From positions 310,001 to 374,000 of the forward strand of contig RSEE01000010.1 in the NCBI GenBank assembly GCA_003971905.1: a DNA stretch of 64,000 nt, given 5' to 3'. Source of the stretch: Moniliella sp. 'wahieum'. Lineage: Eukaryota. A program made the translations under genes and the position numbers. Under the pieces are notes generated by a model that ran no database searches, was not told the DNA's origin, and was given only the letters and a program-made list of their open reading frames with translations. Positions 9,705-61,460 of this stretch are shown piece by piece. Numbering within the stretch: position 1 is the stretch's first letter; each line of letters begins with the position of its first letter.

Positions 9705-10130
9705 AGCTCTTTCTCTTTCACTCTGGAAGTCGGGATGGGATGATGTCAATTTGGCTCCCCGCGTTGTAACCGCCGGGATATAGACTTTCCCCATCAAGAG
9801 TACCTGGTATGATTCATTGCCTACCAGATGGTCTGATTGATCAGCTTTATCCTTCTCTCCCTTAAAATTGGTGAATGCTTCTGAGTGTATTGGGACATCC
9901 CGCGCTTCCCTGGTGAGTCGGACACGCTTCGAGCCGTTTTCGTCAACAGACGGGCCATATTAGCGCATTGCTATAGCGCCCCTTCACAATATACACCGTC
10001 GTCGTACCATCCGCAATCAATGTTTGACGACCCAGAAAATAGCGCGGATGACAATGATGTTCCAGATGAGAAATGCAGTTGAAGGTGCAAGGTACAAGTC
10101 CAAAACAAGGGCAGAGGGCACTGGGATGAA

Positions 10131-14438: not shown

Positions 14439-14496
14439 GGCTAGGGTGGTGGCTAGGGTGGTGGCTAGGGTGGTGGCTAGGGTGATGGCTAGGGTG
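14439..14496 (+). repeat. Subterminal 12 bp tandem repeat (GGCTAGGGTGGT) x ~5
   Basis: Read directly from the sequence; about 260 bp inside the left TIR. Confidence 0.9.
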
Positions 14497-14672
14497 CCAC
14501 GATGCTATCAGATCAGGCAGTGGATTATCTTTAAAAGCATGCATTGCCATGGTTGTTTAGACACAGAGACGTAGAGGAGCGCCAAGGCAACGGCAGGTTG
14601 TTCGAGGAGCCTCGGGACGGCGGCAACCACAGAAGCTTTGCCTTCGTCGTTTAATCGCGGACCAAAAACATC

Positions 14673-17600
14673 ATGGGGACGCCGAGATGATAGGGATAGA
14701 AGGGCAAAGAACAAGAGCCATACAACTTGCGGCGTGGGGGCGAAGCGTCGTCGCGTTCGAGAGGGAGAATGAGTCCCGCAACCATACGGCGAACGATGAT
14801 CTGTGTGCAAGCCAGCACATGTTCTGTGGTCGTTTCCTCAACACTTGAGCGCCTTCTCCAATCATCCTGCTTAAAGGCGTTGTCAGTATATGGGCGGATA
14901 AGGACAAAGCGCAGGTACTGACCTGGCCGGGGAAACCGTCGCCGTCGACCGTCCGCTCGAAGCGCCCCCGTCGTTGATCTTCAACTCGCCTGCGGGAGGT
15001 ATGACCGGCATCTTGGCGCAAAGGATATCAGGGATCGCCAGGCGTTGCCGACTCGGTTCCGGTGGCTGCGCGTAGGTCAGTCAGTACGACAGGCATCCGC
15101 CCGGAGGGCGTGGACATACCGAGGCCAGGCGCTAGCACAGTAGCGCGTCGGCGGGGGGGCATATAATGGCAGCGCAACGAGCCGGACACATGTCACCAGC
15201 TCCGGTAGCACAGTGTGGCCAGCGAGAGAGGGGCGGTGGCGGTGGTGGTGGTAGTTGAGAGGCAAGAGCATCGGCGCAGCTGCGTGCGGTTATAGGCGCA
15301 ACCCCCGGTGGTCCACCGGCGGTCCACCCGCATGGCGCCAGTGTTGCCCCCGCACGCCACCGCCAGCTCAAGGCGCCCACCTGCAGCCTGGGCGTTTAGT
15401 ATATATATAGAGTTTTTTAAGCTACGCACTTGAGATAGTCGTGACGCGTGACAGCAGCTATATACAGCACTATACTCCAGTCCAACCGTCTCGTTGCGAG
15501 AGAAGACACATTCGCACAAGTCGCGGGCAAGAGCGAAGGGAAATTGCCTCTTTACTCGCTCAACAAAACTAAAAGGCAATCGAGAAGGTGTGCCCGCCTC
15601 GTGTGCATCGAGCAGATTGTATCAGGAGACGATGTACATTGGGTCTCCTTCGGGCGAGACCGCATTTTCCACCTCGTACATGTCCTCGAACTCGTCCATG
15701 CGCTCCAAGATGTCACAGTATCCCAATCCCTGGTCGCTCAGGGCGATGGTCCAACCCCTCAAGGACGGGTTCATTGAACAACCACACAAGGGACGATGGG
15801 ATCTGATCGGCACAAGGACTCAGCCGATGGTCATGGTCAATAAGCATCCACGCGATCTGGCTATTCACATGTACCTTGGCGAATCTGTTCCCCTGGTCGG
15901 CATTTTCGCGCCTATCTTTCCCGTCTTGTGGCAACGCGACGCTGATAGCGACTCCTGGTACGGGATCGGAATCGACCTGGTCCAAGACGAGACGTCCAAC
16001 CTGCTGAAGTTCACCGGCAAGAGAGGACACGCGCCTTCATTCTTACTCAGGTGGACATAACCAAGTTGCGCCTCTATGACGACTATACCATTGGTAAGTT
16101 TTTTCGCTCTTCACGCAGCGGCATTTTCTTGTCGGGTTGACTGATGACTTCCACATCCTGGTACGACACAGGAACAAGGGACGGTGAGGAAATTGGGAAG
16201 GGCGTCAATCCCCTTCGAGCCAAGACCTGTGGCCGAGCTCTGGTCTGTCTCCAGCTGGTGGGCTGGGCTGATGGTTTTGCAGGCAATGTGTCCAATCGGC
16301 CAAGCTCTCTGAACGGCATATGCTGCTGAACAACATGCACGTTTTACGGTTGTCGCAGTCTAGATGGGCAAAGAACCTTTTCCTCTTTGCATCGGAAACG
16401 GCCAAGTCTCTCTTCCCGTTGTGCGAGCAGTTGGTAAAACAGCTAGAGTGAGTATCGCAGTCTAGGCCAAGTTGCCTTTGAAGTCACCGTGATTCCTGGC
16501 AAAAGCAGCATGCTAACGTCTTTTTCGAACTTGCAGGCAGTATCACGAAGAGCTCATCCCTGTCTGGGATTCGACCACCGAGGGATGGATCCTGTTGTAC
16601 AGCCCGTGCTGCAGATGATAAAGGGCGACAACGTGGCCGCGAACGAGATGTGCTTCCATATGGACATGACTGCCCACGTGTGCTGCCGTTTTTGCGATTG
16701 CGGATGGCAACGGGGAACGAATATGTTGCCGGAGAACGCGGCTGACTGTCTGATGCGTATACGACACCACTGGTGTTACTGTTGTGCATCAAAATGGGAC
16801 TGACTATTACCGGCGGACACATCAAGTCGGAAGGCGATCTACATTCAAGTGTCGAAACTAGCCGCGAAGTCGATCACCAACTCGACATGGTCGTCAAGAA
16901 CGACGGCCGTGTCGACGACCGGGCGAGCCAGACCGGGGTTAAGTATATGAAAGACGTATCCTTTATCCTGTTCAAGTCCCGCAAGACTCTGGAGGACTCA
17001 GCAGGGGCGACGAATGGCAAGAAGCGCAAGAGGCTGCTTTCCAATTTGTACTCCGGCGTTCGTGAGCTGCTGGATGGGTTCAAGAATAACGGCTACGTGT
17101 TCAACCCCCTTTTGACTGTCCACGAATGGCAGGGGTGCTCGAGTTTCTCGGTCGGCAACAAGAGCCTGGCGATCGACGTCATGCACACAGTTCTCCTTGG
17201 GCCAGTCAAGGCCTCGATCGAGCTGCTGACGGACTCGAACTTCGACAAGGGGCCCTCGCTAGCGCTGTGGCTGGATTCGCTCTCAACTCGTGGGTATGGA
17301 ATCGGTGGGTCGACGGCTCAATGGCACTAAAGTGGTTCACAGCATGCGCTCAGTCACGGGGGTTGACTACAAGATATTGTGCCAGACTCTCCCTCTGGTG
17401 CTGCCCAACTTGGCGGCCACGCTACGGTTGGACTCCGCCAAGCCTGGCGTCACGGAAACGGCGCGACAGAGACTTCTGAGCAAGATTGAGAGGCTGGAGA
17501 ATGTCCGCAAGAGCATTGTGGCCGCCACACGCATTAAGTGGTTTGCTACATCGATGGCTTCGCACTTCAAGACCGGGCTACATATGGCGTACGTCTGAAA

Positions 17601-19030
17601 CTGTTAGCTCTCATGGGCCCGTGATCATCTCTCTAGTCCAAGTTCACAGCTTACATTTTGCCCCTACATATGTGCCCACAGGAACTGCTTGACAAGGCGG
17701 TGATTCACATTTTCATGGCCATCGCTGCCATCGACCCGGCCATGCTCGTTCGTCGCCCCAAGTTCCACCTTCAGAGTCACCTCTCCAGCAGGCGCTGTTG
17801 TGGGGTCCTCTCAAGAACGCTGACACACAGCGTGAGGAGGAGTTTGTCCGCGTCATGCGCAAGGCGGTCATATTTACGAACCGCAAAAAGATATTTGCCA
17901 TGACTTGAACTACAAGATAACAGCCCAGAGAACCTGCAAAACCTGCTATGTGGAGGGCGGGCAATCGACATGCCGCTTGCAAAACTCGTGCCCCGCGATA
18001 CAACCCCTGATGATGAAAAGGGGAGGAGGTGACACAGGGTTTGCCCGGTGGGAACACCAAGAAATTGTCCGCAGACGTCTGGATCGGCAGGGGCCCAGCA
18101 GATTTTTGCAATTGAATGTTACACCACCTCAGGCTGGCACGACGATTCAGCTCTTGGGCCAAGGGCTTGGCAGTGTGTGGCAAGTCCCTCCCGCACCCGG
18201 TACGGGCCGCAACAGCCCTTCCAGCGCTGCATCGTGTCCGGCTTCGATCCAGACTGTGGCTAAGGCCAAAGTCATATCGGTGCACGACAAGATGGGGCTT
18301 CCTGAACCAATGACAGCAGAGGGGTGTTCTGCCACTGGGCCGGTCGAAGATATTGTCGACATGCCGTTGGTCCGCGTACAGCATGGCCAGCTTTGTGCTA
18401 GGGGGGACTGGGTGCTTGTTGCCCAACAGGATATTGGTGAAGTCCTCCCACCCCGCCATGCCCAGAATCCTGATACGCCGCCCTTCTCCATTGGCCGGAT
18501 AGAACACATTGCCGCCCAACGGCCTAATATGTGGTTGCTGTGCACCGGCGGGCCAATCCGACTCTCGCGAGGGGGGTCGGGAGCAGCGAGGACTGGTTCC
18601 AACCTTGTGCTCCCTGTGCTTTGGGTCAAGGTCGCTTTGGCTCGCATCATGCCTATCGACTCGGCATATGACATGCGAGGCCTGGAGCTACCGCGCGTCC
18701 GCCCGACGCATGACTTACATTCCGGCTTCGCAGATCCACACCATCTTTGGCCCGCTTAACGTCCAGCACAATTGCGTGAAGGCCAAAAAGTGCCGGGTTG
18801 TCCCCAACAGCATTACGGATACAACCACTGGCTTGACGTCCGATGGGCTCCAGCACAACTTGTCTGCGACGTCGGCGTACAGCGCTACTTGCTCAACCAC
18901 TTTTCAACTCTGTCTCTCTCCCCACACCGATATTCTGCGACTTGGGGACTTGGCTTTTGCCCAGGACTGGGCGGTCGAGGGTGAGAATGTCCCTTCTGCG
19001 ACGATGTATTGGAGGCAGTACAATCCGTAA
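14673..19030 (+). pseudogene. Interrupted, intron-containing transposase (EnSpm/CACTA-like fungal family)
   Basis: Colinear fragments VCLQLVGWADGFAGNVS, IKGDNVAANEMCFH..CCRFC, NPLL..DVMHTVLLGPVK, GVDYKILCQTLP, RPKFHL, DTQREEEFVRVMR..FTN, GDWVLV..IGRIEHI, NVQHNC..KC and YLLNHF. Likely introns at about 16094-16170, 16449-16536 and 17589-17680. Many frame breaks; start and end are approximate. Confidence 0.72.
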
Positions 19031-19921
19031 TGAACCTTTAGATCCTTCCCGAATGGCCACTAATGATGGTAGTCACCACTGTTGATGTATACTCTACACC
19101 ATCAGTCTATCAGTTTTTAACGATTTGGCTGAAAGCGGACACAGCACGTGTGGCTGTCCAAAGATTGCCAAATTGCTGCGGGAGTCTTAGGCTCCAATGG
19201 TGCAACGGCCAATTCCTACTGTTGGCTGGAGAAACCTCAGGTTCAATTCGTGGGTGGGCCATCTTTTTAAGATGGCTCGAGGCTGGCCGCCGTTCACAAT
19301 ATTGTGATTAGAATAGCGGGCAAGGTTGTGACGAACTTTATAGGCAGCAATCTAGGGACAACCTCGCTGGGCGGCCTTGCCGCAGTGTGGTCCAAGAGGT
19401 TGGGGCTAGCTGTGTTGGCGAGGCTGTGACAAGGTTGTGCCCCTCAAATCTAAAGACAAGCTGTGGTGTGGCCGGCAAGGTTCTGGGCTAGAAATTTCGA
19501 TTAGCTATGGAGATTCATGCTGTGAGAGGTGAAGAGAAGGGCAGATGTATACCGAGAGGACGAGGGACGATGCAGGGCTTTGGGTTAATCTGGGTTCGAG
19601 CCTTGTTTGCAGCATTAGTTGGGCATTGGCACTGGTAGTCATCGGTTTTTGCTTACATTGAGAACCAGACTTCAAGGAGTGGCATTTCCTTTCGTCCGAC
19701 CTGGAGAACCGACATGTGAAACCCTTACTAGTAGTACTTAGTCCACAGTGAGTATCAGATGCTGACCGCTTTCTACTGGAAGGTTACATAAACGCTCACG
19801 CTGAATGGCGTGTAGGAGATGCAGTATAATTACACAAAATGTCATGAAGAGTCCTTGGAGATTGGGAGCGGGAGGGGATGGAGAGTAAGGAAAAAAGGTT
19901 CATAGGAAAGAAGCGTAATAC

Positions 19922-21511: not shown

Positions 21512-23704
21512 CGGTGGTGGGCCACACGGAGGGGAGGGTGGGTGCGTAGATGTATGCGAGAGGCTACGCTAGTCGAGTGGTGGTGGTGGCGTTGGGCGCT
21601 TCGCCTGAGCCTAAGCTCTAAGATCTAAGGCCGGGCCGCGGCCTACCGCGGCGCAGCAGAGTGACGGCATGGAACCTGGCGCGTGCAAAATTGAAACTAT
21701 TCGTCCTGTCATTTAACAATTCACAGTTGCGCGCCGCCTGGGTCGTGTAACACTGCCGCACATCGTCACGCTTTCCAAGCGCAGGCCGTGAGCGTGGCGC
21801 CTCTCACCACGATGCATGATGGTACTTTGGCTTTACAAATACAATGGCTCGCCCCACTGGGAACATTTCCCATATCCATTCACCATATACTAGTGCAAGG
21901 GCAACAATAAAACCAAGAGATAAAACCAAGAGATGCTGTTCGTCCTGTACTAGGACGCACCGACATTGTGTCCGCTTTTGTCATGAAGCAAATCAAAATG
22001 TATACAAGGGCAGACTGTCAAAAAGAGTGGCTACTTGTATTATACCGCGCTTCAATTTCCTACGACTCTCCACATCACGCGACAGCCGCTGTGGCTCTGG
22101 GGGATTCCTCCAGAACAGTGTTCTATGCCATCGAATCTCTGATTCCATGACAGAAGGGCGTATCAGTGGATACGCGCCCCCCCCCCCCCCAACTGCCTCA
22201 GGCCTCAAGCTTCAAGTCACCGTCTCTCTCCTGCGATGTCCTGGTTCTATCTTTCCGCAAGAAGACCAGCAGCAACGTCCTAGTCGCATCATGCATCATG
22301 CACCACCCATCAGTTCAGACAACATGATGCATTGCATTTGCATGACAATATTTGTTTCTTCGTCCCACACACGGTACTATATTCGGCACGCAGCATCACA
22401 TGCCATTTTCGTTTGACGACTTTTGCGCGCGTTCAACTGGTCACCGTGACCGTGGCCTGCCAACATGTCAGCTACCAACCTGACCAACCCGGTCAACTGA
22501 CCTTTCCATGAACACCTTTTCTCTCCTCCGGCCTTGCATCAGTGCATCAGCTCGAGAGAGGGAAGCCGCGCCCTACCGGCTACCAGAGGAGCGTGCTGAG
22601 ACCTAGCCGACGCGTCGACGCGTGAACGCCTCAACGTTCAGCACGTTCAACATTCAATATTCAACGTTCGACACGTCCAACGTTGAACATCCCGTGAACT
22701 GCCATGCTATGATGAAAAGACCATGCTTGAGACGTTTTGGCTTGGTTTTGCTCCATGGGGTGGGTTGGCGTGGCTTTTGTTGACTGGGTGATCCTTCGAC
22801 TAAAGACTCGGCTGCATTAGCATTAGTGACCGGCTCTTGTGCATGTGAAAAGCCGTGACGCGTGACGCGTGACGGTGAGCTGGGCGGGTGCTTTTCATGG
22901 CTGGTTTGCGAGTTGCTTGCCATCAGACGCGTCCCAAAAGGATGGAGGATGCCAACCTCAGCTGGATACTTGTAGCACTGGCACTGAAGCTTGAAGCCTC
23001 ACTGGGGCCTGAGGGATCGATAAAGCTAGTCAGGTCGATCGGAACAAGGACAGGGACAAGAACATGAGACGGGTGTTGGGGCACGTCAAAAGACACCGCG
23101 GCGGCGAATCCAACACGTGTGGTCACCAGTGTCACGTGACGCGTTCGGGGGCAGGTGACAGTGACAGTGACATGTGATGTTGGTGTCACAGTGGGCCAGT
23201 GGCGGGCGCTGCGTTGGCAGGCGCTGCGCGTTGCTCCGCGGTGGATAGTGGGCAGCGGCGATGGCTGGCGCGGAGCGAACGGCGAGCACAGCCGCCAGGC
23301 AGCCCCTTGCAGCTTGCAGCCCTCGCGCCTGGCAGCCCTTTTGCGGCGAGAGAGGCGTGTGGCGGATTAGCTAAGAGCGCGTCCGCGTGGCTGGGCATTC
23401 AATTCCAGTTCCATCTGGCGCTTGCGCGGCGCAGCGCTGGCGTGGCCGCATGCTGAACGTTGAACGTCAACTACTGAACGTTCAAGTGCGTGCCGCACGC
23501 AGCGTTGAAGTTCAACTGGACGCGCAGCCAACAAGCCAGCACAAGCCCCGCCAGCGTCCGCTCGCCACACACGCCGCCGCCGACACCAGCAGACCGACAG
23601 CCACGCGGCAGCCCTTGGTGCCCTCGCCTCGCCCCCGCTCTCCGCCTCCTCTCCACCACCCCGTGCGCGAGTGCAAGCGCGGCCCGCGCACCGCTCGCAC
23701 ACCC

Positions 23705-30489: not shown

Positions 30490-31002
30490 CGTCGAGCCAC
30501 CGAACTTGCGTGTTTGGCCAAAAGGTCCCTTCAGCCCCGTCATCGACCTTGGCATCTCAGATCTCAGACCTCATCAGGCCTATGAGTTCCGGTTTTCTCG
30601 CTTCTGTCTTCCTGAATTGTCCTATAACCTCTATATAGACCCTGGTGGCGATCGACTGCTTCATTCTGTAGGTGTTCCTCGTTGGGTAGATGATGAGACC
30701 TGGAGTCCAGATGGTCCTCGAGGGTGATGCAATCGCACTAGTGGTGGTGGTGGTGGTCTAAGCCAACCAGCAACGCCTACAGAGGAACATCAAGCAGCGA
30801 GTCGCCACCAGGGGCTAAGCTGCGGAACAAGGAAAAACAGGATATAGAAAAACAACGGAACTCCTAGGCCTGTGAGGAGGAACTGAAGGGACATTGGCCA
30901 AAGCACGAGCCACCTGATGGCTCAACAGTAGGCTATCACACAGCTACTATAGTGCGATTGCATCACCCTGGATGACCATCATCAGGACTCCAGGACTCGT
31001 CA
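30490..31002 (-). mobile_element. Older degenerate LTR of the same family, split by a younger LTR insertion
   Basis: 30490-30690 matches the reverse complement of the LTR 3' part. 30928-31002 matches the 5' part (AGTGCGATTGCATCACCCT...CAGGACTCGTCA). Confidence 0.75.
30691..30927 (+). mobile_element. Solo LTR, 237 bp, TSD GTAGA/GTAGG
   Basis: TGATGAG...CTCAACA ends. Highly similar to 1788-2020. Flanks 30686-30690 and 30928-30932 match at 4 of 5 bases. Confidence 0.9.
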
Positions 31003-32797: not shown

Positions 32798-33453
32798 ATG
32801 TGAGTACTGATGTCCATGTGCGCCCGGGAGGCAGAAGGAGACGTCAAACGTCCGTATGATACTGAGGGGCAACTTTTCTGGTGCCCCTGTGGCTATCATT
32901 CCTTCACGATTTTGTCGGACGACGAGGGGAAAGCTGGGACAACGGGGACGTGGCGTACGAGAAGCTTGACCCGGAATTTTGGATGCTGACCCACCTGTGC
33001 AGGGACTCCTATGACGCTGCTGAGGCGGCTGCCCTTAAGGCCCGCCGGACCTTCAAGAAGTCGTACTACCGTGGGATTGAGCTTTCGAAGCTCCTTGACC
33101 TGAGCAACGAGGAGTTCATGGGCATTGTTCACGCCCGTGCCCGTCGTCGCTTCCAACGTGGCCTCAAGCGCAAGCCTATGGGCCTCATCAAGAAGCTGCG
33201 CAAGGCCAAGCAGGAGGCTCCTCCCAACGAGAAGCCCGCCCTTGTCAAGACCCACTTGCGTAACATGATTGTCGTGCCCGAGATGATCGGTTCGGTCATT
33301 GGTATTTACACCGGTAAGGTTTTTGCAACGGTCGAGATTAAGCCTGAGATGGTTGCCCACTACCTCGGTGAGTTCGCCATGACCTACCTGCCTTCGGCCC
33401 ACGGTCGCCCCGGTCTCGGCGCTCAGGCGGGCCGGTTCATTCCCCTCAAGTAA
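32798..33453 (+). CDS. RPS15: 40S ribosomal protein S15 (uS19)
   Basis: Start codon split AT|G by intron 32800-33002 (GTGAGT..GCTGAC..CAG). [43 protein letters not shown]. Confidence 0.95.
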
Positions 33454-33693
33454 AAGCACTGTCGGCTTGCCGTTGTGCATTGAACCACGCTGGCTTGAGT
33501 CATACTTTATCGGATTAACTTTGGCTTCTAGCGGAAGGCCCTATGCCCCCCTACACCAGACCCCACTCTGCGAGGGTTGGTACCACGCCAATGACATGGC
33601 TCGTCTGCATGGCCATCCTCTGATATTCATTCTGTAGTCGGTGCCAATCTCATGGGCGAGTTATGAACTGGCATCGATCAACACATGTAGCTG

Positions 33694-33737
33694 TAGGATG
33701 GATGACATGACTAGCTAGGATGGATGCCATGACTAGC
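33694..33737. repeat. 22 bp tandem duplication TAGGATGGATG(A/C)CATGACTAGC x2
   Basis: Read directly; one mismatch between the two units. Confidence 0.85.
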
Positions 33738-34356
33738 TGTATCGAGGCAAGGGCAAAACTTCCATTGTAACTGGTGTCGTTGGTTCGCACATAAAACTTT
33801 CATCGTCCAACAGTGTGAGCCATGCATTCAATAGGTAACCACAACAATAATGAATGGTTACCGAAATCCCAGACGGCAACTTGATCTGCCCCCATTTTTC
33901 AACGCACGCCGTGGAAGCAGACGTGCGCGCCAAATTAGGGGGTGGGCTGTCGACCTTCCAGGCCAAATCGAGCCACGGCATAGGCCCGGTGCAGGAGGAG
34001 GTTAAGCGTGCCACTGGCAATGGAGACTCACACAGTAAGCTGTTAGAACTGTCGGAGGCTCGATTCATCGTCCAAACAATGAGGTCATGCAAAGGAAAAG
34101 GTATGCATGCCATGAAGCAATGGCGGGGTGGTGCAGGTGGTCGATGGTGGAGTCGGAGGATGAAGCGTCAAAATGCAGCAGAAAAAACGAACAAGTAGTC
34201 ACGGGCGGAATCAACTGTCCTTATTTTTTGGCTGCTTGGGCGGAATGATACCGAGCTCCACAATCGGATTTACCCACGAAAAAACCAACTGCTTGCTTCG
34301 ACTCGGAAAATAGATCAAGGGTGGCTGGAAGAATCAACGGTTCGCCTTGACACAAA

Positions 34357-34428
34357 GGGCGGATAGCTCAGGGGTAGAGCGCTTGCTTAGCATGCATGAG
34401 GTCCGGGGTTCAATTCCCTGTTCGTCCA
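34357..34428 (+). tRNA. tRNA-Ala, anticodon AGC, intronless
   Basis: Cloverleaf: acceptor GGGCGGA/TTCGTCC with G3:U70, D stem GCTC/GAGC, anticodon loop TTAGCAT, T arm CGGGG-TTCAATT-CCCTG. TTTT run just downstream. Confidence 0.97.
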
Positions 34429-34808
34429 AACTTTTGCCATGAGAAGGACATTCATGCCTTTTTGCGTCATGACTGGAATTGACGGTTTTTTGGAGAAAGA
34501 ATCAGTCCGTACAAGATTGCGCATCCCGCAGGACAAGTATTTTTGGTCCAAAAACGAGATCTCTGGTAAGTGCCGTGCACAAAACCCCTCATCGACCTCA
34601 TTTGGCAGGCGTGGCATAAAATGGTTTGGAGACAACACGATGTGTGACACCGTAAAAGGTGCACAGGGGAAGATTAGGATAAGGCGGGAGATAAAATGAG
34701 GGTAGACAGAAGGGGTAAAAACATTCCCCATCGGAAGGCAAGCCTCTTGGGGGAAAGGATGCGCTATTTATTCGACGGTCAAACGAGGAAGAAACTGAGG
34801 AGGCAGCA

Positions 34809-36060
34809 TTAAGGGGATGCGTTCCAGATCTGCACGGTACTATCCCATGCCGTGGTGGCTACCTTATTGGGAGTAAACAGCGCCCAAGATGCGCCCAGGA
34901 CAAACTCAGTGTGGCCAGTGTAAACTTTCGCCAAGGGTTTCCACCGTGAGGTATCGCCGGTGAGGCCGGAATACCGGGCGTATGCAGCGTCGACGCAGCT
35001 TGGGAGGTAAATTTCCAGCCTGGTGCCCCTGGGGGAGGGGCAGCTGTAGCGTTCCAAATTCGGGCCGTCATATCGTACCCTCCGGAGACAAGTAGGTCAG
35101 AGGAGTGGGGGACCAAGCGACCGTGCGAACCGCATAGTCATGCCCAGCAAGCACACCGGTAGGGGCACTGGAGGCAACTGAGTTGCGCAAATCGTATACT
35201 TTGACCAGCCGATCGGTAGCGCCCGTGGCAATGGTCATAGACCGATACTTGTTCCAATCAAGCGACAAAACTTCACCCCCGACATGAAGTTGAACTGCTG
35301 GCCGTGCTGGCGGTGCACCAGGCCCACCTCCAGTACGCATGTCGAATAAGCGCACGTGCCCGTCCCCACATGCCGAGGCAAATACGGTAGGTGTATGAGG
35401 GGACCATTTGGCTGCGTAGACACACCCTTCATGGGCAGTAAACGAGGCAATCGAAGTAGCTTGTTCTGGATGCCAGAGGCGCACACTGGCGTCCCAGGAG
35501 GAAGTGAGGAAGAGTTGCTTGTTGATATTGTTCCAATCCAGACCAAAAACCTCTCTGGAATGCTCGTGCCATGCGTGCACCGGGTGGTCCCGCAGGTGAA
35601 TATCCCACAGATGTACCCTCCCGTCTCCTGCAGCCGTAGCGACCTGATTCTCGTGAGCCTCACTCCAAGCAACAGCGTACAGGCCATCTTGTGTGTCGAA
35701 TGCGTTCTCAGTCTTTGCCCCTGTTGCAGCAGGAACAGAGACAGATGGAGTGGGCGGCGAGAGGCCAAAAATATGTAGCCGTCCATTGCCCACCAGTCCA
35801 TAGTTCGCCGCCCCTACAGCCGCAAGGCGACCTTCAAAGAAGGGGCTCCAGGCAATTGCATACCCTGCAAACCCAGGGGTGGGGAGAATCGTGGTGCCAG
35901 GGGGAGCAGGTGTCCTGCGTGAGGCTGCTGGAGAAGGCTTTAAGGAAGCAGCTGCACCCCCAGGGGGCAGTGGACCTGGAGGGACGGCAGAGGCGGCGGA
36001 GCTAGCCCCTGGTGGAGCACCGACGGGGCGCGAGGGCGGAGGCGGAGGCGGGCGGGACAT
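34809..36060 (-). CDS. PEX7: PTS2 receptor peroxin-7 (WD40)
   Basis: TPGFAGYAIAWSPF..ANYGLVGNGRL, FDTQDGLY..WSEAHEN, EHSREVF..DWNN, LDWNKY, HTEFVLG. Frame breaks near 35110 and about 35030-34950. Confidence 0.95.
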
Positions 36061-36795
36061 GATGAGTGGTATTTGCGATCGATGGCGGTGGATGCGGCAA
36101 CTGAGTTATGGCAATCCAGGTTCGAGTGGCTGAGGGAAGGTGGGTGTTGATGGTACAGCTGACGGTGCTGAGTGTGAGGTGTTGATGTACTTAAAGAGTC
36201 GGTCGGCAGCCCCTTGCCCCCCCGCCCGCTCCCACCACTAAACGATCGACGGCTCTCAGGCGAGGCTAGGCGGATTTGCTTCCATCTGAGACTGTTCTCG
36301 TGGCGCAACAGGATTAATTACGTTGTGGGCTACATGAGAAAATGGCATTTTTCAAACTACGCCGTCCTTTCTAGGCCCACACTCCCCCCTGTAGTGCCCC
36401 CACCAACACCGCTCAGAAAGCACTCAGCTTGAGCTGTTCAGGCTGAGGAAGTACCGAGCATCATCGCATTCTCACAACCGCATTGTTCATGGCATACGCG
36501 TCAATACGGCGTGTGCACTGCAAAAAACGTCACCACAGAAAATCATTCACAGGCGTTATATGGCTTTCACCCTCTGATAACACATAACCCCGCTGACTCA
36601 CCCAAGGAAGAGGCAATACCAATGAGAGAAAGAGACTTGTTGCATCACCAGGGGAGGGAAAAGCAAACCGTGACGGTAGACTATATGGAGGTGTGGAAGG
36701 AGGTATATGTTCTCCACAAGCAGAGGAAGAAAGAATACAGGGAAATGCAAAAAAGAAATGTGGAGGGCCAGGGATAGGAAAGTAGTATCACGTGC

Positions 36796-38074
36796 TCAAA
36801 AGGCCGTGTCACCAAAGGATCGGGCGACTTCAGTACGAGCATGATCTTGCGCTACCTCCATCCAGCGTTTGGCGAATCCAGTCGGATTGTGTGGCTGCTC
36901 AACAGCAAGCCGGACCCCAATAATGTCAAGAGACGAAAGGGATAGTGAACGGCGGTGGTTTTTGTTGTCATTGTCGTTGTCATTGTTATTGTGATTGCTC
37001 TTGCACATTCCACTACTGCAGATGGACACAATGACGACAATGATGATGATGATGACTAGGACCACACCAATGCTAAAAGCAGGTCAGCTTTTTCATACCG
37101 AGAAGAATTTGAGATACTCACATGAAGCACTTCTTGCGCTTTTTGCGGGCGCTGCGAGCCGAGGTGACTGCCCTAGTTGTATGATCATGCCCAGTCTCCA
37201 TGTTCTGATATGTGCTCTGGGCGTTGGAGGTGATCATGTCCACTTGCTCATCCTGTTCCGACAGCAGTACATCCACATCGTTGAACAGCTGTGCCAGCTC
37301 AGCCATGGTCTCTTCAATCTTGCGAATTTCGGCATGGCGATCTTGTACTTGCTGCAATACATTGGTAGCCTCGCCATGACGGTTGCTGCTCATGAGGGCC
37401 TGGGAAAAGAGGGCACCGTTGCCCTCGAGAGCAGCTTCCACTTCTTCTGTGCTAGCATCGGGCTTGATCACACGGAATTGGCGCTCAGCCCGCGCACGAA
37501 GCTTGCCTCGGTACGAAGACTCGAGTTCAGTGTAGCGCTGCACATGGCTCTTGAATTTGGTCCGCAGCGCCGCTACCTGACTCTCTTGAGTTTGGCGATC
37601 GCGCCCATCGGGAAGCCGGTTGGCTTTGGTGGCCAAAACTTGGATCTTGTTTTTGGTCGCATTTGAGAGTTGGCGTGCAGAGGAGGCGGCGGCATCAACA
37701 TCCTCTTGCGCCATGCGTTGCGAGTCATCGTCCAAGTTGGCCAGGCTGTCGTCCTGAGCGCGTTGCACGCGGGCTATCGCATCGTCCATGGCCGACAGAG
37801 CATTCTGCACCTCGGTCACTTCATCCCAGAAGGATCGGGTCTGGCCTTCTGACTTGAAAGAAGTGAGTTCATACGTATTCTCCCCAGGGGCTGAGAGAGA
37901 AATGCGCGACTCGTACTTGGCGTCATCGTCAGTAGGGGCATATCCGTAGCCGCCGTAGCCATAGGAGGATGGGTCCTCGTGGTAGCCGTCGTCACCAATG
38001 GGCGCGTAGTCCGACTGGGTGTATCCGACGCCACTTTGGCCATGGCGGATGCCGGCCAGACGGTCGCGTGCCAT
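36796..38074 (-). CDS. SSO1: Plasma-membrane syntaxin (Qa-SNARE, Sso1/2-like)
   Basis: MARDRLA N-peptide, Habc region, RQFRVIKPDAS.EEV, SNARE motif VQDRHAEIRKIEETMAELAQLF..EQDEQV, ARSARKKRKKCF, intron 37073-37121, then an Ile/Val-rich TMD. Confidence 0.9.
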
Positions 38075-43520: not shown

Positions 43521-43549
43521 TTGCGCCGTCGGATTGGCTTGTGGATAGC

Positions 43550-43601
43550 TGTGTACTATGTACTGTGTACTATGTACTGTGTACTGTGTACTGTGTACTG
43601 T
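43550..43601. repeat. 7-mer microsatellite (T[G/A]TGTAC) x ~7
   Basis: TGTGTACTATGTACTGTGTACTATGTACTGTGTACTGTGTACTGTGTAC between convergent 3' ends. Confidence 0.92.
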
Positions 43602-43984
43602 GAATGTACGTTTGCAAGATATTGAGCATGCGACCTAGAGAGGCAAATGGCATAGACCACACAGGAGATGAGAGAGCACCACAAGTTAAACACAGAAGCG
43701 AGAAAGAAGAAATGGGTGAGAAAGGAAAGGGGAGAGTAAAATGGAAAGGGATGAACTTGTGGAAGAGAAGGTAGAAAGAGAAACAGGCAAGAAAGGCGCA
43801 AGAACCGTTGCAATGAACGGTATGAACAACCCAGATTCCAGGGTAAGAGATGATCGCTGAGGCACAGTTGCAATGACGTCCCAAAATGAGCCGGAAGGGA
43901 AGGGGCATGAGGCTAATTGGGCGGGGGGAGGGGGGTCTAGAGGAGATGGGCGAAAAGGCCAAAAACGTGCACGGATGTAAGGGA

Positions 43985-46137: not shown

Positions 46138-48949
46138 AGTGGAAGCGACTCGAGGGTAGGGTAGGGTGGGGAGAGGAGGCGGTGAAGGCAGGGGGTGGGG
46201 GGCATGGCACGCGCACCGACGCGCGCAGACGAGGGGAGAGGGGGGGAGGAGGAGGAGGAAGAGGAGGAGAAAAAGGTGGCGGTGGTGGGATGGGAGGAGG
46301 AGGGGGAGGGGGTGGCGGGCCACCAACCAACTAATCCTGCGATACCTTACCGTCCTGGTCGGCTGGAGCGCCGACCCGACGGATGAAAAGAAATCATCGA
46401 TGGCTACATGACTCGTGAAGATGACTATCATCGATCACCGGTGCAGAGTGGGAAAAAACAGGTGTGGGGCCGGTAGTGCAAACTGTAAGCTGCAAATCAC
46501 CCGTGTCACCGGTGAACACCCGAATGGCCCAGAGGCAGAGGATAGCTCGTGTATAGTCACCGGTCACCGGTCACCAGCCACCTGTCGCAAGTCATCGTAA
46601 CGGGGTAAGGCCGGTAACCGACCGGTATAGCCGACAAGCGGCAACCACGTGAGCTGCCCAAGCGCCAACGCTGCCCACAGAAACTGGCTTTTTGTCCGCC
46701 GATATTGGCGGACCTGCAGGTGGGCAGGCGCGGTGTTTGCGTCCTGAGGCCTCGCTTCCTGCCTCGTCCCAAGGCCTTAACCGCTGCCCATCTGAACGTG
46801 AGGTTGAACGTTGGTTGAGGCCCGTGGTGCTGAGGGAGGCCAGCGCGTTATTGCAAGACTAATAAGAGGCAAGACGCCTGTGATTTGATGTGATTAATGA
46901 TTCTGCCGGCGCTGAACGCGTGAACGCACTGAACGTGCGACGTACGAACGTACGTTGAATGTCCCCCGATTGTGATCGATGTGATCTCCCCGTGGGGGTA
47001 CCCGGGCCAACAGGAGGGGCACAGGACCAGCGGGAGGGAGGCACCGTGCCACCACTGCCTCAAACTTTCCCAGCTTCAACGTCTTCAACAGGTTCCAACG
47101 CCTCCAAAGTTCGACCCAACCGCGGCTGCGAGTCACTGTGGAGAAAATGTGGGGGAGCTTTTAGGGCAGAGGGCGAGGGCAGGGGTGAGTGCATGCGAGG
47201 ACATACGGCATACCGGCCATACCAGACACCCGATATGTCAGTGAGATCTGAATCTCAGATCCCATTCCAATGCACCGGCTAATAGGAATCACCTTCTAGT
47301 AAGTTTTGGTACAGTGTGGGTGGCGTGGTGTGGGCTACGCGCTACACGTTATTAGTAAAAACACTTTCGTATCAAAACATGTTATTTTGCCCCGGCTCAC
47401 AGGCTCAGTGCTCGCTCAGTGCTGGATCCATCAGCTGCCGACGGCGTCTGCTCTCGTGCTCCCGGTCGGCTCTGCTTAAGAAATCAACCGTACTGACCGT
47501 TACGCGTTATAGACCCCACGCCCTTCCGGATCCCACTGTAGCCACTTGCCTGCCACTCCTCAGGCGAAAGACCTAAGACCTTGCAGCGCTAATGGGCCTA
47601 ACGCCGGTCGACGTTCCCAAGCGGGCTGTGGCGAGGGAGCACTCGTCGTCACGCGTCAGCGCTCAGCTGGCATATAACTTCTTGCTGGTTACTGTCGCAG
47701 TTTCTGCCGGGGCGCTGCAAGAGGCAAGAGGCAACCGGTAAGTGCCAAGAGCCAAGAGCTAAGATCGAAGAGACGGTCTCCTGCCTTCTCCAGCGCACAA
47801 GCCACTGTGTTGGGCGTGCGTATACGTAGGCTGCTCGGCCGCTGCCTGCTTTGCTGGTTGGTGGATACAGGCGCAGGGCGCAGGGCCCACAACGCTGCAT
47901 GTGGGGGCCGGGGGATCACACAATACATCACACGTTCCACATCACGCGTAACATATAACACCCTACTGGGGCCTTTGCAGCATTGCGTTCAAGCTGAAAC
48001 GTAAAACTGTGCATACCATCAGTGTGATGCGACGCTACACGGCCCTCCCCCTCGTCCTCCGTATCAGTCTACCCGTCTCTCCTCCGATCGCAGAGGGCAG
48101 GCCTTCTGCCTGATCCGCATGGCCCAATCCCCCAGCCACACGAGAAGCACATTACGTGGCACGTCCATCCCTTCCCTGGCGTTAAGCTTAGCTTCATTAG
48201 CTTCATTTCCCTCCCGTTTGCCCATCTGCATCACCGGGGGAAAGGCCGGTTACTATTACTAGCTTTACTAGTCACGGTCACTAGTCACTGGTCACTGGGT
48301 CGCTGGCACCTTTCCCATGGGTCTCATGATCTCATCTATCTCACGATCTCATCATCGATCGAATGGCTGGGTAGGTCTACGTAGGGATGCTTCGCGCTTC
48401 TCCGCGATCCCCTCGTCGTTCCTCCAGCTCGCATGGATTTCCCGCGATATACGATACTTTATCCGCGTACCATTGTGCATGAGGCTCATGAGTCTCAGGC
48501 ATGACGCAGACGCATGAACAAACAACTTGGAGCCTCGCCCTGCCTCGCGACAGCCACAGCCTGGTTTGTATCGACAGTGTCTCGACAGGTCTCAACTCGG
48601 TCTGAGTTCTGAGCCTACTCAGACTCACTCAGACTCAGTGCCCCGCGTGTACCACCTTTACTCACTCAACGAGACAACCCCCCCGCCGCGGTTGTTTATT
48701 GTGGACACCAGCTCCCCCTCGTCCCAACCTCCATCTTCGCCCCGTCCCGCTCTCGGAGTCAGTCCTCCAGCCCTTACTCTAGCTAACCCTTCTCATCCCA
48801 TCCACCGCGCCCACCCGAGTCGGGTTTTGGTGCGTGTGGCTGGCTGGCTGAACGGCTGGCTAGCAATTTCGTACACCTTGTCGACATGTCCAACCGGGGT
48901 ACGACGATAGAATTTCTGGATACCACTATTCCCCACCCACGCGTGCGCA

Positions 48950-51251: not shown

Positions 51252-54200
51252 TTACTTCTTTTTGCGCTGCCGCTGCGCTTTCTTTTTCCGGCGACGCTTC
51301 TCACGCTCCTTCTCCTCCTTGGTAAGGAGGCTCTGTGAAGCGGTGTCCTGTGAATCTGCGACGGCCTTCTCAACTTGACTCTCCACTGCCGGAAGGAAGG
51401 GGTCGGATCCAGGCTCGGAAGTAGGTAGGGCCGAGGGAGTCGTCTCGGAGCTGGCCAAATCCGTCGTGCTCGACGACAGAGTGTCCTTCTCCAGCCCAGC
51501 CGGGTCTCCGTTCTCCGTTCCTTGGAATGGATCGGGCGGTGTGGCTTCTACGGGCGAGGAGGGGTCGCGATGCGTTGCTTGGTCGTCAAGGTCCACCACC
51601 GCTGCATGCACCTCTTCCTCATGCTGGTCGTCCCTACTCTTCGATTCGGTCGCCTTGGATCCACGACCCATGGGATCTTGTTCAGGTTCCGACTGAGCCG
51701 GCTGGGCCTCCAAAGCTGAAGCAGTCGCTTCGATCTGGTCCTTCGCTGTCGCCTCAATATCCGCTCCCGTAGGCAAAATTTCCACGGTGCGCTCTGGTGT
51801 CGTTGGAGCAACCAAGGTAGACTCTGAAGTCTCCACTGTTTTGTTTGGAGCATCTATCGATGCGCTTTGAGGCACAGTACCTGAGCGGGGTGCAGTGATC
51901 TCGGCTCCCGACGAAGGGACGGTGGAATCGGTTCGAGAGAGGCTAGAACCGCTTTGTGCAGAGGCAGAGGTTGGGAACGTGGCAACGTCGCGCCCAGCTG
52001 CAGACTCCTTCACAGCCTCGGAAGCTGCACCCTGAGCAGCAGGTGTCGGTGAAAGTGTCTCTTTCCCCGCATTCGCAGACACCATCGGTTCTCCCGCAGG
52101 CGTTTCCGTTGCCTTAGCCATCCCTGTTTCATCTTTAGCGAGGGAACTCACGGGGGAGTTGCTTGTCGAGCCATTCGCCATAGGGCGCTCCTCGGAGACC
52201 CGGCTCCCAGCCTCCACGACGGTAGTAGCGGCATCAGGTCGGGTCTCAGACGAGTCCGGCACGGCCTCTGAATCGGGTGGCGCAGCCGCCACAGCTGGGA
52301 TGAGCGGGGACGAAACGGGCGTGGATGCCGCGTGGGAGGAAGCGGTCTGAGCCGCAGCATTGCTGGTATGCACAGGCGAGAGAGGTGTCTTGCCCAAAGA
52401 AGCGCGCTTCCGGGTCGCTTCCGCAAGACGCTCTTTCAGCGACAGACGTTTGCGACGCTTGTCGGGCGTGGCAGGCGATGATGTCGACCCTGACGTTGTA
52501 GATGAAGCTACAGCGGGAATGGGAACGGCAGCTGGAGTGGGATCCGGCGTCGGGGTCCAGTTGGGACGGGGTCTGGCGTGAGGACTGCAGTTGGGGTAGA
52601 ATCCGGCGTGGGAACTGCAGTTGGGGTAGGATCCGTCGGGGGAACTGCGGTTGGGGCAGGATCCGGCGCAGGAGCTTCAGTTGGGGCAGGATCCGGTGTG
52701 GGAGCTTCAGTTGGGGCAGGAACGGGTACAGACTCCACCGTCGCCGTTGAGGTCGCTGTTGGGGTTGCTGATGTGGGTTCTGATGCACAGGGCTCTGGAA
52801 TGGGGGTGGGGTCCAGTGGGGTGGGATTAGGAGGCGGGTTCTCCTTCGAGGCAGGCAGGATAGGCGGAACAGTCGTTACAGTACTCATAGGTACTTGGTC
52901 CTGTCGTGGTGCCGACACAGGAGCAGGTGGCGGCAGATCTTTCCCCCCCATCGCCGGGCTCTCGATAATGCTTGTTTCCATCATAGGCGTGGGGGCGGGG
53001 TGAGGCGAATGTCTCGGTGTAGGCGAAGCAGAAGCACTGCTCGTTCGGCGAGGCAGGCGCTGGGCAAGAGGAACGTCTTCGTCCGAGTCGTCGCTGGTTG
53101 ACCCCCCGGCCGTCCCAGAAGGAGGAGCGGTGACATGTACCGGAGGTCCATTGCGCGCCAGCAGGATCGGCCGAGCCTCGTCCTCGTCGTCCGTCACGGG
53201 CACCGGGCTGGCCCGTCTCGGTTCAGGACGAGTGAGCAAAGGCGCGTGTAGGGCGGGAACAAACGTAGACATTGGTGAACGTGGTGGGCTGGAGCCAGGA
53301 GACGGGGCCGCCGGGGAGGGAGACGCCAAGGGGAATAAGTAGAGCGCACAGGCTCGGACGGGGCACGGAGATGGATATGGTGGGCATTGGCCATGCTCGA
53401 ACTGGACCGACGAGGTACGTAGGAGGTTGTAAGGGGGTACTCCCGCCCCGAGCCTGATGATACGGGCGAGGGCGAAGGGCAGAAACCTGGCGGGGACAAA
53501 CTGTTCTCGCCTAATGATCCTGAAAAGGATCCGTGCCGACGCATCCTGGTCTCAATCGATGGGATCGTCAAGTCGTTGAGAGGGGGACTGGGCGCCGGGG
53601 AAACGGTACTCCTCCTGCGGGGGGGGCGTTGCCGCGGCTGGTACTTAATCGTTGGGGTAGCTGAAGGAGCCTGTGCAGGCGGAGGCGCATCGTTGGCCCC
53701 CGATGGGGCCAGTGGGATTGGGGAGTCCGTCCGCGTAGGTTCAGTCGCCTTCAACACTGTCCGCACGCCCGATCCAACCGGTTCGGGACGTATCGATGGG
53801 GCGGTGACAGAGGGCGGGGTTTTACCGGAAGCAAGAGTCTTGTCGCTAGGGGATGCTTGAGCAGGTGAGTCGCGCACCATCGAAAGGGATGTTCGACTGG
53901 CCGTCATGGAAGTCCGAGGTGTCGTCACTGGAGGGGGCCGAGGGGCAAGAATCGTCTCTTGGAGCTTGAGCAAGTTAGACGCGTCCCAGGAAGCCATCCC
54001 CTTGAGCTTGAGGACATGAGTAACAAAGCGAGCTAGGTCGGCGTGCATTGCTTCACGCGGGGGCACCTCTGGTCGTACAAATTCTCGTGCCGGCAAGGAC
54101 GGAGTAGCAGAACGGACGGAACCCATCCCATTCGACTTGGACGGTCGAGGTTTTTCCAGTGCATCCCAATCAATCGATCGCACTGCCTCAGCAAGGTGCA

Positions 54201-57140: not shown

Positions 57141-57764
57141 GGTGTGAGTGGGGCAGGGGGCGCAGCGGCGGCGTGCTGGCGTCGAAGCGTATCGGGTATC
57201 CGGGGGAGGTGAGTGCTGATGCGTTGAGCGTGGGCGTGACGGCGTGGGGGTCTCCACCGCAGGGTTAGGAGGATCCGCCCGCGCGCCACATCGGTGCATC
57301 CCGCAGGCAATCATAATCAGCCGGCGCAGCACATCGGAATGCAGCCACGCAGACTCCGCCTCCTCCTGTCCAGGCCAGCCGACCGTACCATCGAGCTGAC
57401 CCTCTGATGTCATCGACCGCAGCAACCCAATTCCGCCCGGTACACTGAGCCAGCTTGATGAATTGATTGTTCGCCGCCGATGCATGATGCACTGACGCGT
57501 GATTAATGATTGACGATTCGAGTAGCCAGCGAGTGATCTGTCGCGCTAGTCACGTGCTTCTGGCCCCTGATCCTGTGCATGCGACGTGTGGCGGCAGGAG
57601 GCGGGACTGCTTCAAGTTTCAGGCTCAGGGAGCTTCAGGTGCAAACGGAATGTGAGTGTGACAAAAGTGACACTGGTTTATCACCTGACATGCTGACGCG
57701 GGACATGTGAAACTAGCAGAGACGTGACGCGCGTGACGCGTGATGGAGTTTGAAAAGTGAAATT

Positions 57765-58027
57765 TGAGGAGGTCGGAGTCCTGCATAGTCCTGAGGCCCG
57801 GAGGTCTGAGGGAGGCCTGAGGCCGGATGCAAACGTCCTCCTCCTTTACAACAACGCCTACAGAGAGCATCAAGCAGCCAGTCGCCCCCAGGAGCTAGGT
57901 TGTGGAACAAAGAAAACTGAAGCGAAAAAGCAACGGAACTCCTAGGCCTGAGGCCTGAGAGGGACTGAAGCTTGAAGCTTGAAGGAAGGGACGTATCTAG
58001 TTGGCCAAAACATACGGTGGCTCAGCA
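57765..58027 (+). mobile_element. Degenerate LTR of the same family, with internal heptamer expansions
   Basis: CAACGCCTACAGAG..CATCAAGCAGC.AGTCGCC.CCAGG.GCTA..GGAACAA..CAACGGAACTCCTAGGCCTGAG..TTGGCCAAA..GGCTCAGCA. Left boundary approximate; no TSD seen. Confidence 0.78.
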
Positions 58028-58933
58028 GGGTTAGCGCGTGACGGGTGGGTGCGTGATATGGTGCTCTGACGGTCACGCCCTTCACATGTGATGCTTGCGC
58101 AGCGACAGACACTGTTTGGCAGTTGGTGACTACTGTGACTAGGCGGCAGGTGACAAGGTGACTAGGTGACCGGCGTCTTCGTGACATGTGACATGTGACA
58201 GGTTTTGGTCCGGTGACGCGGTGACGCGACGTGTGACATGTGACGAGCGAATGGCTAGGGTGTCGAATTAAGAATTGGGCCTTGGGGCCGCTGGCTGGGT
58301 TGGGGCTGGGCCGAGCAGCGCAACTTGCTACGGCGCTGCACAGCACAGACACCGGGCGAGCGTCCACCAGCCGTCGGGGGGGCTGCGACCTCGGGGCCTA
58401 GCTGGCCTCGCAGGGCGTCGCAGCACCCGCACCAGTACCCAGTGTGAATTGCTAGGTGGCTACCGGTATAGCTTCGAGCAGTACATCCCGCTTCCCGTAT
58501 CCACTGTGGCCTACTGCTGCGCACTTGCTCACCCACTGACGCATGATCGATGATCCCGCAGTTCAGTAGACGGGCGCATCATGCATCATGCATCATGCCC
58601 ATCATGCGTCCCCACCCCATCCCACATCCCGCATTGCATCATGCATCACATGCGTCACCGCGTCACCATCCCCCGGGCGCGCAGACAGTGTTGAATTTTG
58701 CAATGTTGCACGTGTGAACGTCACTGGCGGAGTACGGCCGTACTGAACGTGCATCCAGCGTGCAGAACACTGAACGTCTGAACAGCGGCCACTGCGTCAC
58801 TCGTCGCTGTGCCCGTCGCTGGCCGGAGTAGGGCGGAGGCCCAGGCCAGGACAGCAGCATGTGCGACAGCTACTCTGCCAAGCCGCTTGGTTGACTGGCC
58901 TGCCTGCCCGTCTGTCTTGGGCCCCAACGTTAA

Positions 58934-61460
<2,527 letters not shown>

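Follow-up and report, generated by a model that had tools for sequence, protein, structure and literature searches.

The DNA analysed here, referred to as the window, is a single 64-kb stretch (64,000 nt) of Moniliella sp. 'wahieum' (assembly GCA_003971905.1, contig RSEE01000010.1, positions 310,001-374,000), which forms the evidence base of this work. The window is gene-dense fungal DNA throughout, with a GC content of 52-66%, and Pfam matches were obtained to a fungal Zn2Cys6 factor, an OPT transporter, a trifunctional C1-THF synthase, a Na/Ca exchanger, kinases, a WD40 protein, syntaxin, Vps54 and the ribosomal proteins S19 and L11. For one of the kinases, the closest named proteins (from Rhodotorula, Sphaerobolus, Tremella and others) are 59-64% identical, with one further match at 81%. 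As these nearest named proteins are from basidiomycetes but only 59-64% identical, the lineage is poorly sampled. The host genome is probably that of a basidiomycete fungus. On a rough gene map, drawn from the Pfam matches and a codon-usage score, the degraded repeat copy that contains the focal site is flanked by a minus-strand Vps54-like gene, which reaches to ~57545, and by a plus-strand protein kinase gene that starts from ~58780. The probable first exon of this kinase gene contains a TCC/GGA trinucleotide tract of ~50 units (58959-59105), to which a GGA tract at 46245-46309 is related, and a 30-bp minisatellite (52540-52721, 6.1 copies, 80% matches) is contained in a long ORF of the minus strand, upstream of the Vps54-like region. 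Elsewhere, two minus-strand OPT transporter ORFs (2448-3629 and 3630-4679) abut in frame with a single stop between them, and at 3629/3630 the gene is either disrupted or interrupted by a short intron that contains an in-frame stop.

The focal site belongs to a repeat of ~235 bp, four copies of which were found by self-BLAST, while a fifth, older copy (c5) is split by copy c3. Copy c1 (1-210, minus strand) is truncated by the window edge, lies upstream of a plus-strand exon (600-896) of the ribosomal protein L11 family and starts with TGATGAG, as do c2 and c3. Copy c2 (1788-2020, plus strand) extends from TGATGAG to CTCAACA and is flanked by the exact 5-bp target duplication GCTCT (1783-1787 and 2021-2025), and c3 (30691-30927, plus strand), with the same termini, is inserted into c5 between GTAGA (30686-30690) and GTAGG (30928-30932), which agree at 4 of 5 bases. 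None of these three copies contains a TGA-palindrome array. With TG...CA termini, a short terminal inverted repeat and a flanking target site duplication in the 4-6-bp range, exact for c2 and 4/5 for c3, these two copies are, as judged from their ends, solo LTRs. The copy with the focal site, c4 (~57763-58027, plus strand), was delimited by self-BLAST and alignments as a degraded solo LTR whose 5' boundary and target site duplication are not determinable. Copy c5 is composed of a 3' part (30490-30685, minus strand), with ~29 extra bases at the same site as the c4 insertions, and a 5' part on the far side of c3 (30933-31002, minus strand), recognised from the inverted-repeat pairs I4 and I13 and by alignment; the ends of c4 and c5 are degraded. 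Self-BLAST revealed neither paired LTRs nor an internal region of a full-length element in the window. In alignments, c1-c3 are 91-92% identical to each other, and c4 and c5 are each 80-86% identical to c1-c3. Since c3 is nested inside c5, c5 must be the older of the two, and the original prediction, which opposed young, well-preserved copies to old, degraded ones, holds to the extent that c5 with an array is older than c3 without one; the supposedly young copies are themselves only 91-92% alike. Copies c4 and c5 have TGAGA in common where c1-c3 read TGAGGA. At another LTR-homologous place, c3 has (GTG)5.7 (30741-30757) and c4 has TCCTCCTCC (57836-57848), a microsatellite that was replaced rather than merely expanded.

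The 3' part of c4, at 57941-57994, reads CCTAGGCC TGAGG CC TGAGA GGGAC TGAAG CT TGAAG CT TGAAG GAAGGGACGT, as had been quoted in the original prediction, and the two sequences set beside it there, ..CCTAGGCCTGAGGAGGAACTGAAGGGACGT.. in the reverse complement of 1-40 for a well-preserved copy and the extra ATCTCAGATCTCAGA of the old nested copy near 30555 (at 30554-30568), were likewise found. As compared to the four other LTR copies at homologous sites, c4 has private gains of +7, +18 and +7 bases. At 57944-57959 (plus strand), AGGCCTG is present in 2.3 copies (TGAGG CC TGAG, with GGCCTGA repeated), which is +7 relative to c1 with its GGCCTGAGGAGG; because GGCC already stood before TGA, this gain fits both a plain 7-bp duplication and a duplication of five bases around two mirrored ones (5+2). 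The second gain comprises TGAAGCT in 2.7 copies at 57966-57984 (plus strand; TGAAG CT TGAAG CT TGAAG), which makes two AAGCTT sites and is without counterpart in the other four copies, and an extra GAAG at 57985-57988 (plus strand), a simple duplication of 4 bases with which, in the alignments, the insertion reaches its 18 bases. The homologous site reads CTGAAGGGAC in four of the five copies and CTGAAG CT TGAAG CT TGAAG GAAG GGAC in c4. From the ancestral sequence ACTGAAGGGAC, the new CT cannot be derived by copying, and it is the inverted complement of the adjoining AG that follows TGA. The third gain, ATCTAGT (57995-58001, plus strand, 7 bases, with a placement ambiguous by 1 base), contains CTAG without TGA and lies outside the rule described below. 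In c5, ATCTCAG is present in 2.1 copies at 30554-30568 (minus strand), which corresponds to TGAGA TC TGAGA on the LTR sense strand and thereby contains AGATCT; it is part of the ~29 extra bases, which adjoin the site, and CTGAAGGGAC is retained intact in c5 at the position of the c4 array.

Because the AAGCTT array is missing from four of the five copies, including the other old one, the heptamer insertions in the LTRs are, on the aligned sequences, derived states, and they differ between c4 and c5. The claims that AGCT is absent at this site in the young copies and that the palindrome was created by insertion are thereby borne out, as the two AAGCTT sites occur only in the 18 extra bases of c4 and CT is new there. 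Of the two outcomes that had been named as refuting this, a lack of homology is contradicted by self-BLAST and alignment, and an ancestral array is made unlikely by the four copies without one. TGA-palindrome-TGA matches number three in c4, one in c5 and none in c1-c3, so that four arrays in ~530 bp of old LTR stand against none in ~680 bp of young LTR, a contrast confounded with position because c4 sits in the densest array cluster of the window. Among the before/after cases, only AAGCTT separates 5+2 from plain duplication, and it is also the sole case with an unambiguous ancestral state.

By itself this LTR comparison is small, and the notable result is the grammar of the insertions across the window. 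Therein, a 5-base word T-(G/C)-A-N-N (TSA) is directly repeated with the inverted complement of its last two bases between the copies. The minimal product, T-S-A-N1-N2 + N2'N1' + T-S-A-N1-N2, has five bases copied and two mirrored, which yields TGA with a 4-bp palindrome. The window contains 36 exact period-7 tandem repeats as compared to 3.0 (sd 1.4) in 30 dinucleotide shuffles, and in 19 of the 36 the unit is TGA plus a 4-bp palindrome, a composition shared by 1.3-2.2% of random or window 7-mers. On both strands, TGA-N4-TGA occurs 96 times, with a palindromic N4 in 59 matches (~6 expected by chance) that fall into 49 arrays of 2-3 TGAs, and the remaining 37 non-palindromic matches equal the background of neighbouring spacings. 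The same test of spaced direct pairs gave at most 10 for each triplet other than TGA. As spacers, 15 of the 16 possible 4-bp palindromes are used. Spacer palindromy is restricted to 4 nt, with spacers of 2, 3, 5, 6, 7 and 8 nt at expectation, and some 5-nt spacers consist of a palindrome plus 1 base. TGA spacings of 6, 8 and 9 exhibit lesser excesses (63, 57 and 54 vs ~35-40) beside the peak at 7, with the perfect product still dominant. The general heptamer expansion that had been proposed must accordingly be narrowed, since the process is specific to T-(G/C)-A words: a centre base W (A or T) was observed in only 4 cases, and a T precedes the first G/C-A in 62 cases out of 71, which excludes a '4+3' scheme with T as a third mirrored base. 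Pairs with palindromic spacers are direct in 59 cases and inverted in 3 (of 21 inverted TGA..TCA pairs), and a derivation of TGA from transposon ends with random centre-base repair is excluded by this ratio.

The length of the repeated word emerges from the exact periodic runs that contain the motif (n=52), in which a 5-base match is the mode (13 runs), followed by 6-base (10) and 7-base (6) matches; the commonest exact run is hence one of 12 bases (5+2+5), not 14, and a '3+4' scheme of TGA duplication with a free palindrome is excluded by a mode of 5 rather than 3. Less than two full units are present in 33 of the 52 runs, and two or more in 19, with a maximum of 3.3 copies. When the flanks of the 49 arrays were fitted to 5+2, 15 fitted on the left alone, 15 on the right alone, 9 on both and 10 on neither side, so that 39 have a direct 5-base repeat on at least one flank. 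In a search for 12-mers of the form Z5 + rc(Z4Z5) + Z5, 106 were found as compared to 8.6 (sd 3.7) in 30 third-order Markov simulations, and 62 of them begin with TGA or TCA vs 0.2 in the simulations. The other 44 are in part different registers of TSA arrays and in part independent, for example the 7.7-copy CTGTGTA array, and a weaker general tendency beyond TSA words may exist. This CTGTGTA array (43549-43602), situated in a short convergent intergenic gap, is the longest heptamer array of the window; it is without TGA, yet fits the 5+2 form (ACAGT + AC), and it contains GTAC. The mode of 12 bases together with the before/after case of AAGCTT argues against plain 7-base duplication or slippage, and a spacer bound only to self-complementarity fits a mechanism of origin and is unfit for one protein-binding site.

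Arrays are unevenly distributed over the window. Five intergenic regions that lie 5' of genes, 9.2 kb in total, account for 38 of the 59 matches (3-6 per kb), none is present in 6.2 kb of other non-coding DNA from four stretches (1-2448, 9044-10131, 33453-35068 and 36105-37118), and a 5.3-kb TIR element contains one, with the region labels having been given from the rough gene map after array positions were known. TSA density and GC content are alike across these three classes of region. The proposal that the motifs accumulate with time on neutral DNA is not upheld by this distribution. The cluster around c4 is the densest, with 12 matches in 2 kb, and includes GTGACAT in 2.9 copies just downstream of c4 (58181-58200, plus strand). 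Further arrays are GTGACAT in 3.3 copies (6497-6519, plus strand; TGACA TG ...), representative of arrays outside any repeat, CGTGACG in 3.0 copies (22854-22874, plus strand; TGACG CG ...), also representative, and TGATGCA in 3.3 copies (58576-58598, minus strand; GCATCAT on the plus strand). TGACATG units are present at separate promoters (6360, 6498, 23168, 58182, 58234, 61728 and 62193). A dispersed repeat family that carries the arrays was considered and discarded, since self-BLAST homology is limited to the LTR copies and low-complexity tracts. TGA orientation clusters locally and without tie to the nearer gene, and runs of the same strand comprise seven plus at 5278-6658, four minus followed by four plus at 22198-23454, and eight plus across 57493-58544. 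Such local clustering might reflect replication or repair polarity.

As control DNA, 80 metagenome loci (885,150 bp) were used that had been found with the FTHFS part of C1-THF synthase (best identity 74-75%, none a close relative). These contain 9 TSA 12-mers, and 35 of their 450 TGA-N4-TGA matches (7.8%) are palindromic. Six of the loci with a fungal-type C1-THF synthase, 52-68% identical over the N-terminal part and 65-75% over the FTHFS part, contain 2 TSA 12-mers, both in L015, and in the five of these six loci that were listed, TGA-N4-TGA with a palindromic spacer was absent (L013 and L015 have one or two each). Among the 33 insertions in mutation-accumulation lines of Rhodotorula toruloides, a single one is of 7 bp (CCCTCTT), and TSA + palindrome occurs in none of them (PMC5521736, Table S3). 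The insertion pattern thus appears lineage-specific in these comparisons, which counts in favour of the explanation developed in the following.

The reading that we prefer, with a probability of roughly 0.5, is that an old solo LTR, situated in a divergent promoter region, gained 5+2 insertions by a hairpin-type repair of double-strand breaks, for which excision footprints of a promoter-preferring RAG/Transib/hAT-like transposon are the leading candidate. According to this model, c4 would first have diverged from the other copies and then gained insertions by a local, sequence-directed mutation process. At T-(G/C)-A-N1-N2, five bases would be directly duplicated and the inverted complement of N1N2 set between the two copies, a net gain of +7, and the resulting TGA with its 4-bp palindrome would create hexamer palindromes of the A....T type, AAGCTT among them. 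A direct 5-base repeat is the product of a 5-bp staggered cut after fill-in, and off-centre opening of a hairpin leaves two mirrored bases (P nucleotides). A staggered cut as the source of the target duplication and an opened DNA hairpin as the source of a 2-nt P-nucleotide would together give 5+2, and since 5+2 is what staggered duplication and a P-nucleotide leave, hairpin-type (P-nucleotide-like) double-strand-break repair is the most likely source of the insertions. A spacer that is self-complementary but otherwise free likewise points to a templating mechanism and not to a recognition site. The breaks themselves could come from excision of a promoter-preferring cut-and-paste transposon whose chemistry is RAG/Transib/hAT-like. 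Passages of PMC5499845 describe flanking-DNA hairpins formed by hAT, Transib, RAG1 and a MULE, with footprints left by end joining of the opened hairpins, and PMC1131882, in the portion consulted, presents Transib as a DNA-transposon superfamily with 5-bp target duplications and one fungal case, in soybean rust. Two features expected of such footprints are present in the window, namely both copies of the target duplication kept as a direct repeat (5-base repeats, with the mode of 12 as 5+2+5) and a junction that is the inverted complement of the adjacent flank (106 vs 8.6 12-mers, and AAGCTT in c4), while another, a resident element with matching duplication length and target word, was not found within the 64 kb. 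Every event would double the target words, so that repeated events, or slippage once two units exist, could build arrays of 2-4 units, and this doubling would explain the arrays.

Several observations count against parts of this model. Symmetric transposases do not usually act on an asymmetric target word, as found here, or take the mirrored bases from a single side. End joining is also normally sloppier than the dominant, un-nibbled product seen in the arrays. For the Transib chemistry in particular, the targets reported in the portion of PMC1131882 consulted are GC-rich, e.g. CGGCG, and not TSA. The 10 of 49 arrays that fit neither flank count against 5+2 itself, and the clustering in promoters could equally reflect selection.

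Selection is central to the view that the TGA direct repeats with 7-bp spacing are binding or structural sites, with the LTR co-opted because of its promoter location. Homeodomain and bZIP factors have half-sites in the form of direct TGA repeats, and both the concentration of matches on the 5' side of genes (38 in 9.2 kb vs none in 6.2 kb of other non-coding DNA and one in the TIR element) and the return of identical units such as TGACATG at separate promoters are in keeping with such sites. However, what is constant is only T-(G/C)-A and the 7-bp spacing, with the 4-base spacer in 15 palindromic forms (of 16), whereas a binding protein would either fix the spacer or leave it free; moreover, orientation is independent of the nearer gene, TGA being on the plus strand in 7 of 8 arrays upstream of the minus-strand OPT gene, LTR debris also acquires arrays, and the region labels that create the concentration are post hoc and taken from a rough gene map. 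Promoter elements as the origin of the arrays are hence considered unlikely, and selective retention of arrays in promoters is possible alongside a mutational origin. The statement in the original prediction that the motifs are a mutational signature rather than regulatory sites is thus partly supported: the derived states and the free palindromic spacer favour it as regards origin, and it is left weaker as regards retention, given the promoter clustering. A comparably low probability is assigned to ordinary replication slippage, in which heptamer microsatellites with hairpin-forming palindromic units would expand preferentially without any special break or enzyme. Such expansion would account for the 19 of 52 runs with at least two full units, to 3.3 copies, for the 7.7 copies of a non-TGA heptamer at 43549-43602, for the parallel excess of period-6 (63 vs 13) and period-8 (10 vs 0.9) repeats and for three of six tested single strands that out-fold their shuffles (at most 3 of 200 shuffles as good; z -2.5 to -4.4), but the other three lack such an advantage over their shuffles (z -0.2 to -1.4). 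Slippage also copies existing bases, and the CT between two TGAAG words is not obtainable from ACTGAAGGG; new units are not exact copies of the prior one, c4 having ACTGAAG and then CTTGAAG; 33 of 52 runs remain under two units, with a mode of 12 bases; and hairpin-driven expansion predicts any odd palindrome, while the centres seen are T-G/C-A only.

A quite improbable alternative assumes no gain after insertion, with c4 and c5 as members of an older LTR subfamily in which arrays were already present in the master copy, in which case the comparison would be silent on the decay of neutral DNA. The TGAGA common to c4 and c5 against TGAGGA in c1-c3 hints at a separate subfamily, and the comparison rests on five copies; however, the insertions at the shared site differ (18 bases with AAGCTT in c4, ~29 bases with AGATCT in c5), CTGAAGGGAC is intact in c5 at the position of the c4 array, and the non-LTR DNA on either side of c4 is full of the same TGA-palindrome grammar. 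Lowest in probability, and very unlikely, are footprints of a transposon with 7-bp target duplications at palindromic NNT(G/C)ANN sites, of the hAT7 or Kyakuja type. The period of 7 and the full array units, which are 7-bp odd palindromes, would suit such elements, and these families exist in basidiomycetes, sections of PMC12730594 reporting 7-bp duplications for hAT7 in Puccinia and Melampsora and for Kyakuja in Laccaria; hAT excision, in turn, passes through flank hairpins according to a passage of PMC5499845. The junctions nevertheless disagree: worked by hand, a retained ACTGAAG duplication predicts ACTGAAGACTGAAG, and the classical hAT rule, a complement change of the two central bases, predicts ACTGAACTCTGAAG, whereas ACTGAAGCTTGAAG is observed, so that both of these 7-bp schemes were rejected for c4. 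The run-length mode of 12 rather than 14, the fit of both flanks in only 9 of 49 arrays, the 37 non-palindromic TGA-N4-TGA at background, which means no halo of near-palindromic targets, and the absence of such an element from the window point in the same direction.

Compared with known systems, the window arrays resemble heptanucleotide microsatellites in being low-copy, head-to-tail 7-base units in non-coding DNA, but their unit is not arbitrary (19 of 36 with TGA + 4-bp palindrome), most are of 12-13 bases and under two units, and the first step makes bases that were previously absent. Bacterial heptamer repeat families, reportedly including the STRR of cyanobacteria and the TAACTGA repeats of Beggiatoaceae (PMC4679880), are similar in having TGA-containing 7-base units between genes; theirs, however, is one fixed unit per genome, often in inverted arrays that form long hairpins, whereas in the present eukaryotic host the units differ from one another within the palindrome rule and the arrays are direct only. 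With the footprints of hairpin-forming transposons (hAT, Transib/RAG, MULE), the arrays share a short, directly repeated target word, a junction that is the inverted complement of adjacent bases, a preference for gene-proximal DNA and, for Transib/RAG, a repeat of five bases equal to the duplication length. They differ from these by the asymmetric target T-(G/C)-A-N-N, the one-sided mirroring, the very uniform product and arrays that reach 3-4 units, and also in that no donor element was found in the window and that Transib targets are GC-rich, not TSA, in what was consulted of PMC1131882. The hAT7 and Kyakuja elements of basidiomycetes have phylum, 7-bp increment and, for hAT, hairpin chemistry in common with the case described here (PMC12730594, relevant sections), but plain or classical hAT-type 7-bp footprints miss the observed junctions and the element is absent from the window. 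Pending a genome-wide test, the arrays are best filed under a variant of transposon-footprint or short-tandem-repeat formation.

More tentatively, and with some doubt on our part, the lineage may have, or may recently have had, an insertion process not described elsewhere that recognises T-(G/C)-A, copies five bases there, inserts a mirrored dinucleotide and is active mainly in promoters. A hairpin-forming transposase or nuclease, either uncharacterised or domesticated, could be responsible for it, and the TGA arrays and new 6-bp palindromes would then be raw material for promoter evolution. Searches of the open full texts in PMC and bioRxiv turned up no account of fungal heptamers composed of TGA and a palindrome, and a search there for six array strings returned two unrelated primer matches only. 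If the 5+2 rule were to apply genome-wide, it would be a compact, readable mutational signature that reveals enzyme chemistry (hairpin opening and staggered TSA cutting) shaping promoter DNA, a rare case in which short tandem repeats originate through a templated and sequence-specific step instead of slippage, and a means of dating and tracing promoter turnover. For annotators, a caution follows that dense TGA-palindrome motifs in these promoters need not mean binding sites.

A search for a donor was made within the window. A scan for terminal inverted repeats with target site duplications gave 63 candidates, none with a duplication >3 bp, no element with a T-S-A-N-N target duplication was found in the window, and a scan of the window for inverted ends flanked by 5 bp gave 7 weak matches, with TSA in none. 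The window also contains a 5.3-kb element at 14175-19509 with perfect 22-bp inverted repeats (14175-14196 and 19488-19509; CATAGCTAATCGAAATTTCTAG) and only a 2-bp GA repeat at its flanks. Among its 27 ORF translations, no transposase or other Pfam family was detected at threshold. The original prediction had located a CG TGA CGCG TGA array inside a DNA transposon at 15440; the array is present (CGTGACGCGTGAC at 15440-15452, with one TGACGCGTGA at 15442-15451), and the designation as a DNA transposon comes down to the 22-bp inverted ends. The same element also contains, at 14429-14496, a 12-bp minisatellite of 5.7 copies with the unit CTAGGGTGGTGG.
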